A stretch of DNA of 64,000 nt from Eledone cirrhosa (taxonomy: Eukaryota): positions 414,160,001-414,224,000 of the forward strand of contig OZ024740.1 of assembly GCA_964016885.1 (NCBI GenBank), in the 5' to 3' direction. The notes beneath the pieces were generated by a model that was not told the DNA's origin, made no database searches, and saw only the letters and a list, made by a program, of their open reading frames with translations. Position numbers and translations under genes: made by a program. Below are positions 32,589-32,705 of the stretch, in pieces. The stretch's first letter is position 1. Each line of letters begins with the position of its first letter.

Positions 32589-32705
32589 ATAGGAACAAGT
32601 AAGACCCCGGGGTCTTACTTGTTCCTATTACCCACTCTACTACCTAAGTATTGAGTACTTTGGTGCGTTCTGGTCCATCTGGTTCCTTACCACATTTCCT
32701 TCGTT
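32589..32705 (+). mobile_element. Minimal fold-back insert: perfect 40-bp palindrome plus 77-nt tail, in (TA)n
   Basis: ataggaacaagtaagacccc|ggggtcttacttgttcctat. The tail is homologous to the reverse complement of 60798-60875. Confidence 0.85.

Follow-up and report, generated by a model that had tools for sequence, protein, structure and literature searches.

In the genome of Eledone cirrhosa, a minor class of inserts from a Penelope-like retroelement (PLE) has arms that end exactly at the bond where a hammerhead ribozyme is predicted to cut, and we consider it likely that these junctions are a footprint of ribozyme cleavage, including the variant in which a single cDNA folds back. The specific reading that we prefer, in which two cDNAs ran off the 5′ end of hammerhead-cleaved RNA and were joined head to head, is probable, if held with less confidence. 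Most arms of the family end near position −41 and the cut-ended ones represent approximately 3–4% of arms; one of them lies in the window, as we call the whole 64,000-nt stretch of DNA that was analyzed. Positions are numbered from +1, the first G after the GTC of the predicted cut, GTC↓GGGGTC.

The insert, its family and the predicted ribozyme

The insert comprises 118 bases set inside a (TA)n repeat (Table 1), and starts with the 40 bp palindrome that the earlier note had described as folding at gacccc↓ggggtc; this is indeed perfect over 20+20 bp (32589–32628, center at 32608/32609), with a chance expectation of about 4e-7 per window. The outer end of the short arm (+20) is fixed across copies of the family, the tail arm reaches the second reverse-transcription start (+98), and the PLE tail corresponds to positions 32629–32706. 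The tail arm is identical to a long genomic copy (L169) in 96 of 99 columns, and its markers from +7 to +14 are those of a subfamily with U3-A8 in 4/4 long copies, while two variants in the tail resemble other subfamilies. Because of the CG microhomology at the junction, the fold point is ambiguous by ±1 nt, and CG annealing by itself suffices to explain this copy; taken singly, it proves nothing, yet it is a member of a real class. We rejected its identification as a non-LTR retrozyme, since it is a single two-arm insert with neither ribozyme core nor tandem units, and as a MITE or DNA transposon foldback, which is at odds with a one-sided 78-nt tail instead of terminal inverted repeats at both ends and with long copies that are contiguous with an ORF for reverse transcriptase (RT) and endonuclease.

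Table 1. Positions in the window of the parts of the cut-ended insert and of its relative.
Feature	Position	Strand	Description
(TA)n target, left side	32565..32591		Repeat flanking the insert
Short (TA) arm	32589..32608	-	Inverted element +1..+20, ending on its inner side at the predicted hammerhead cut
Arm junction	32608..32609		At GUC↓GGGGUC; arms abut without a spacer and share a CG microhomology
Tail arm	32609..32706	+	Element +1..+98, matching the predicted 3′ product of the cut
(TA)n target, right side	32705..32722		Repeat flanking the insert
Sister-subfamily insert, majority class	60798..61016	-	Both arms cross the cut site and end at −41 plus one untemplated base

Motif counts across the 3.0 Gb assembly gave 3,991 matches to an exact 33-mer of the tail and 39,802 to the arm motif that runs through the cut (read-through). 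The typical insert consists of two inverted arms that start at +20 and +98, each joined to (TA)n. Long copies contain a single ORF with an RT followed by a C-terminal GIY-YIG (L126, 481 aa open, YRDD ... VIYQC..AYIGLT, by motif recognition), HSDKTGN (DKT in place of DKG) and LRWRTF (an RWR variant of RWK) in L073 and L105, and, in L008, the CxCX5C linker (CNCPDRSLC) and CNLCSEE..LLN..CKH (CxxC and CxH around conserved E and N), with no CCHH. Pfam and PDB sequence searches with this ORF returned no match. Judged by its motifs against the published description, rather than by a tree, the family appears to be a Hydra-type PLE, an already known kind of element; an assignment to Naiad was rejected because the endonuclease is C-terminal. 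The Hydra clade is described, in the available part of the source, as having a single ORF, DKT, RWK, CxCX5C, insertion in (TA)n and an inverted truncated copy plus tail (PMC8557442). Our family shares with it the DKT, an RWK-like motif, the CxCX5C linker, the C-terminal GIY-YIG with CxxC and CxH, the targeting of (TA)n, a hammerhead in the pLTR and the inverted 5′-truncated copy with a tail, but differs in the tail (around 78 nt versus 30–40), in its U3-A8 core and in a 40-nt loop II with a likely start site. The part of that work seen here does not map inner arm ends to the ribozyme and calls the function of the hammerhead unclear (PMC8557442).

The long copies carry the motif ACCCC-YUGANAA-G..CGGCUA [about 40 nt] UAGCCG-UC-GAAA-CGGC-loop-GCCG-UC↓GGGGU, with 5,599 matches genome-wide. 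Among the 100 long copies listed, core position 8 was always A (100/100) and position 3 was U in 75, C in 24 and G in 1; the GAAA and the GUC triplet are present, a palindromic loop caps the 5 bp of stem III, and loop II has some 40 nt. The minimum free energy structure of the natural long copy L170 is a three-way junction (z −1.9) and, in 27 long copies, 97.6% of cells were paired versus 17–56% when slid; these copies, at 92% identity, displayed 0 compensatory base changes, and an Rfam hammerhead search of the window and one long copy gave no match. The long copies are predicted, on motif and fold, to carry a type I hammerhead with a UUGANAA core and U3-A8 that would cut at GUC↓GGGGUC, and the position proposed by the earlier note is borne out, as a prediction, by their fold. 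U3-A8 is a described hammerhead variant in PLEs (PMC4209133, in part). As with the PLE hammerheads of that source, including that of Cercyon, we found type I topology, U3-A8 covariation, a G10.1-C11.1 pair, a long helix II and inverted motif pairs; unlike them, stem III here has 5 bp and a palindromic loop and is not minimal. On the minus strand at about 53980–54040, the window also contains a canonical hammerhead-like motif, with CUGACGA, a long stem II, GAAA, an AU-only stem III and a CUGC/GCAG stem I.

The earlier note had drawn its cut position from a relative at 60798–61016, and the shared tail was borne out (86% identity over 102 nt with 60898–60797 of the minus strand). GAAAC-GGC..GCC-GTC↓GGGGTC junctions are found at 60994/60995 (+) and 60898/60897 (−), as that note had read them; what it took for a hammerhead is only the half with GAAA, stem III and GUC, and there is no CUGANGA or UUGANAA core on either strand of this insert. 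The complete predicted ribozyme is seen in the long genomic copies instead. Nor does the relative testify to a cut-ended template, as it falls in a different, putatively start-site-ended class (Table 1). It adjoins a SINE-like segment (window ~61035–61250), which we presume to be such from resemblance.

Other families of two-arm-plus-tail inserts in (TA)n occur in the window at 31475–31897 and 43058–43409, with hammerhead cores, and at 32929–33559, 61699–62297 and 1780–1874; dozens of such families exist in the genome, with 220 segments counted in a biased set of loci spanning 1.2 Mb and about 25 types of hammerhead. A tandem array of ~274-nt units of the studied family (L022-L024, G000:C3:214145152-214149341) has the 5′ core of the ribozyme deleted and one inverted block. 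The window further contains the decayed C-terminal GIY-YIG of a further Hydra-like PLE, after which comes a duplication of 132 nt (~59050–59600), a 31-bp satellite with 289 copies and 96% matches (9244–18205), and a longer repeat in two copies of opposite orientation (22849–23500/63349–64000 and 24040–24478/62360–62798) with 93–95% identity, each near a 140-nt duplication.

Arm ends near −41 and at the predicted cut

A junction-blind sample of 100 copies, picked by tail alone and with 55 short arms parsed, showed where arms generally end. Tail arms ended at −36 to −47 in 51/100 copies, at −48 to −90 in 0/100, far upstream in 9/100, at −1 to −35 in 19/100 and at +2 or beyond in 20/100, leaving 1/100 at +1; likewise, 37 of the 55 short arms ended at −36 to −47 and none (0/55) at +1. 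Junctions near −41 number 10,045 genome-wide. The site reads TTAGT or TCAGT, which resembles the invertebrate initiator, and −41 is likely a transcription start inside the ribozyme, in loop II. An untemplated C follows −41 in 14/29 non-A cases and would be a copy of the cap, a weak signal since microhomology could explain 9 of the 14. We also rejected a 3′ splice site (TTTAG↓TCC) as the source of the cluster at −41, given that arms pass the AG and there is no constant upstream exon.

A search for arms that depart from the template at +6 to −8 gave 2,917 matches, and 100 listed arms were aligned to natural long copies; 33 of these were dropped, for indels or joins in stem III further upstream, and 67 scored. 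From +6 to −8, ends among these listed arms numbered 5, 5, 3, 2, 7, 21, 6, 2, 2, 2, 8, 2, 2 and 0, with 21/67 at +1 (binomial p 4e-9; 6e-7 with each locus counted once). This peak is understated, because the filter leaves out the zero-spacer and single-A/T joins that are the commonest cut classes. The histogram of arm ends relative to the GUC has the sharp peak at the cut that the earlier note had anticipated. Arms that end at +1 and continue with a non-template base gave 1,310 matches, of which a hand tally accepted about 80 of the 100 listed as genuine, and some single arms (L255, L264, and L314) pass directly from +1 into (TA)n. Scaled for filter losses, we estimate the cut-ended arms at roughly 1,000–1,800, or ~3–4% of read-through arms, so that the proposal that cleavage defines the template end would hold for the cut-ended class and for only that fraction of arms.

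In short-spacer junctions, both arms frequently end together at the cut. Such junctions amount to 400 genome-wide, and a hand tally of 50 listed ones found an untemplated spacer and no overlap, with each arm at +1, in 25, a zero spacer like that of the window insert in 8, ambiguous GAC/GTC joins in 9 and other arrangements in 8. In a second listing, both arms were at +1 in 44/56 junctions and the spacer was a single untemplated A or T in 26/56. These single A/T spacers are not deaminated CG, a candidate rejected because CpG decay at the cut site is too low (5/117).

A probable cleaved template and the rival explanations

If two cDNAs ran off cleaved RNA, the element protein would nick both (TA)n strands and prime two cDNAs at +20 and +98 of one RNA. 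Transcripts from about −41, in loop II, would lack the catalytic 5′ half and yield the majority class, while read-through transcripts would hold the entire ribozyme and give long copies if uncut or, if cut, an RNA starting with GGGGUC. Each cDNA made on the cut RNA would finish with GACCCC and frequently acquire an untemplated A before the two are joined head to head; the window insert would be such a join without spacer. That the arms come from one RNA agrees with the subfamily marker shared by both arms in 48/50 listed loci and with the 44/100 listed long core matches that sit in inverted pairs.

A cleaved template would also be implied if a single cDNA primed at +98 ran off, folded back and copied itself as far as +20, a scheme that accommodates the strong correlation between the inner ends of the arms (44/56 listed junctions) and their common markers (48/50 listed loci) and that we regard as rather unlikely. 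Of 55 parsed copies, 24 have a short arm that outreaches the tail arm, 14 show the opposite and 17 have arms within 3 nt of each other; a longer short arm would need later deletion after folding back, and the outer end of the short arm stays at +20 even where arms reach kilobase length. Additionally, two RT start sites on one RNA bound the tail of the anole PLE in vitro, according to the part of PMC11167929 available. Since the short arm is often the longer one, two separately primed cDNAs fit better than a fold-back; of the earlier idea that a cDNA of the 3′ cleavage product was duplicated in inverted form, the template is probably right and the duplication is not supported.

Alternatively, uncut RNA could be the template, with RT stalling at +1 before the stem III hairpin or past GGGG, which we also think improbable. 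Stem III is present in all templates, cut-like junctions also occur in C3-A8 subfamilies, and rates are much lower in families without GGGG; in the anole, the main substrate in vitro was unprocessed RNA and no RNA-seq ends fell at the site, in the sections seen of PMC11167929. A hairpin, however, predicts ends at −1 or within the stem, and the observed peak is at +1; independent stalls at 3% cannot place both arms at +1 in 44/56 listed junctions; and untemplated A/T additions suit run-off at a template end.

Subfamilies and other families bear on the same question. Cut junctions per read-through arm were 213/20,176 (1.06%) in pure U3-A8 subfamilies, 129/19,626 (0.66%) in the remaining ones and 8/2,368 (0.34%) in a mostly C3-A8 subfamily (6/7 long copies), differences (p 0.003 and 0.018) in the direction that cleavage predicts, from search patterns of unequal length and with long copies biased toward uncut RNA. 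A mismatched C3-A8 core is expected to be nearly dead (the literature searched yielded no rate for it), and the depletion of cut junctions in C3-A8 subfamilies is 2–3-fold, far below a dead-core effect; trans cleavage is possible in these subfamilies. Family 2 (L370-L399, with a degenerate piece near 24564 in the window) is PLE-like, with a canonical CUGAUGA core, a GUA cut and a covarying stem I (GAUUC/GAAUC versus AGCUUC/GAAGCU). It has 12,938 read-through arms, 12 short-spacer junctions, about 3 of them double-cut, and a weak mode at +1 (9/~57, p 0.03) that is confounded by T/A neighbors; its short arms stop a short way 5′ of the core, which implies an uncut ribozyme in most of its templates. 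Family 3 (L460-L489, L070, and L346) is arranged as tandem units of 591 nt, in each of which a U3-A8 hammerhead has a long loop II and a palindromic stem III (4,943 motif matches), and looks like a non-LTR retrozyme with an architecture akin to that of the studied PLE family. Its cut, GUC↓GAGG, has no G run, and +1 is nevertheless the mode, against a stall at GGGG, with 9/41 independent ends by hand tally (p 0.002), +2 being nearly as frequent (7 versus 9); double-cut palindromes were 0 among its 4,943 arms. The +1 site thus recurs without a G run, at a family-specific rate.

Least of all do we credit microhomology joining, or deletion of the palindrome center down to a CCCC/GGGG clamp, unrelated to any RNA end: long palindromes are unstable, the window insert has 2 nt of CG microhomology and 9/50 listed junctions are GAC/GTC joins, but 25/50 have untemplated spacers and zero overlap, CG-centered perfect palindromes number 8 at the cut versus 1 at the neighboring CG (p 0.02), the sequence immediately upstream is equally GC-rich, and +1 ends also occur in the single arms joined to (TA)n. 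The objection that microhomology alone might explain the fold points probably fails for the class, the untemplated spacers being beyond its reach, and keeps its force for the window insert, which is ambiguous.

Precedents and significance for Penelope-like elements

The closest precedent is the junction record of the HDV-like ribozyme of R2 (PMC3774820, in part), where the cut position is also recorded in genomic 5′ junctions. In R2, the full-length element owes its 5′ end to the cut, whereas the cut described here would leave the RT start sites on a different fragment from the ORF and yield only 118-nt inserts. The Anolis Poseidon PAc, in the portion of PMC11167929 consulted, likewise has two RT start sites downstream of the hammerhead that bound the tail, cleaves both DNA strands at AT-rich sites and uses mainly uncut RNA as template; in that element, RNA-seq gave no reads with an end at the cut and cleavage proved dispensable in vitro, whereas in our family a minority of the genomic inserts stop precisely at the predicted bond.

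Four works, in their available parts, leave open whether the hammerheads of PLEs cleave in vivo and to what end (PMC4209133, PMC7761336, PMC8557442, and PMC11167929), the first of them declaring in vivo evidence absent, and we found no description of a cut-ended insert class in the literature searched. Drawn from hundreds of events in the germline, a peak one nucleotide wide at the predicted bond would have no earlier in vivo counterpart in that literature. Assemblies alone make the question testable in each PLE family, by tallying how many junctions fall on the cut, on the start site or past it, and the result also favors the view that the inverted copy plus tail arises from priming at two sites of a single RNA.

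Tentatively, and as a single joint reading that we hold as less likely than not, head-to-head junctions of PLEs could constitute a fossil 5′-RACE library, with the hammerhead acting as a brake and the promoter in loop II as an escape from it. If this is true, start-site-ended, ribozyme-cut and read-through templates would be recorded separately in each family, and around 1 in 5 full-ribozyme templates would have been cut when copied, because there are about 1,000–1,800 cut-ended arms versus 5,599 core-bearing arms. The hammerhead would then brake the element by cutting the ORF away from the RT start sites, and the promoter in loop II would render most transcripts immune to it.
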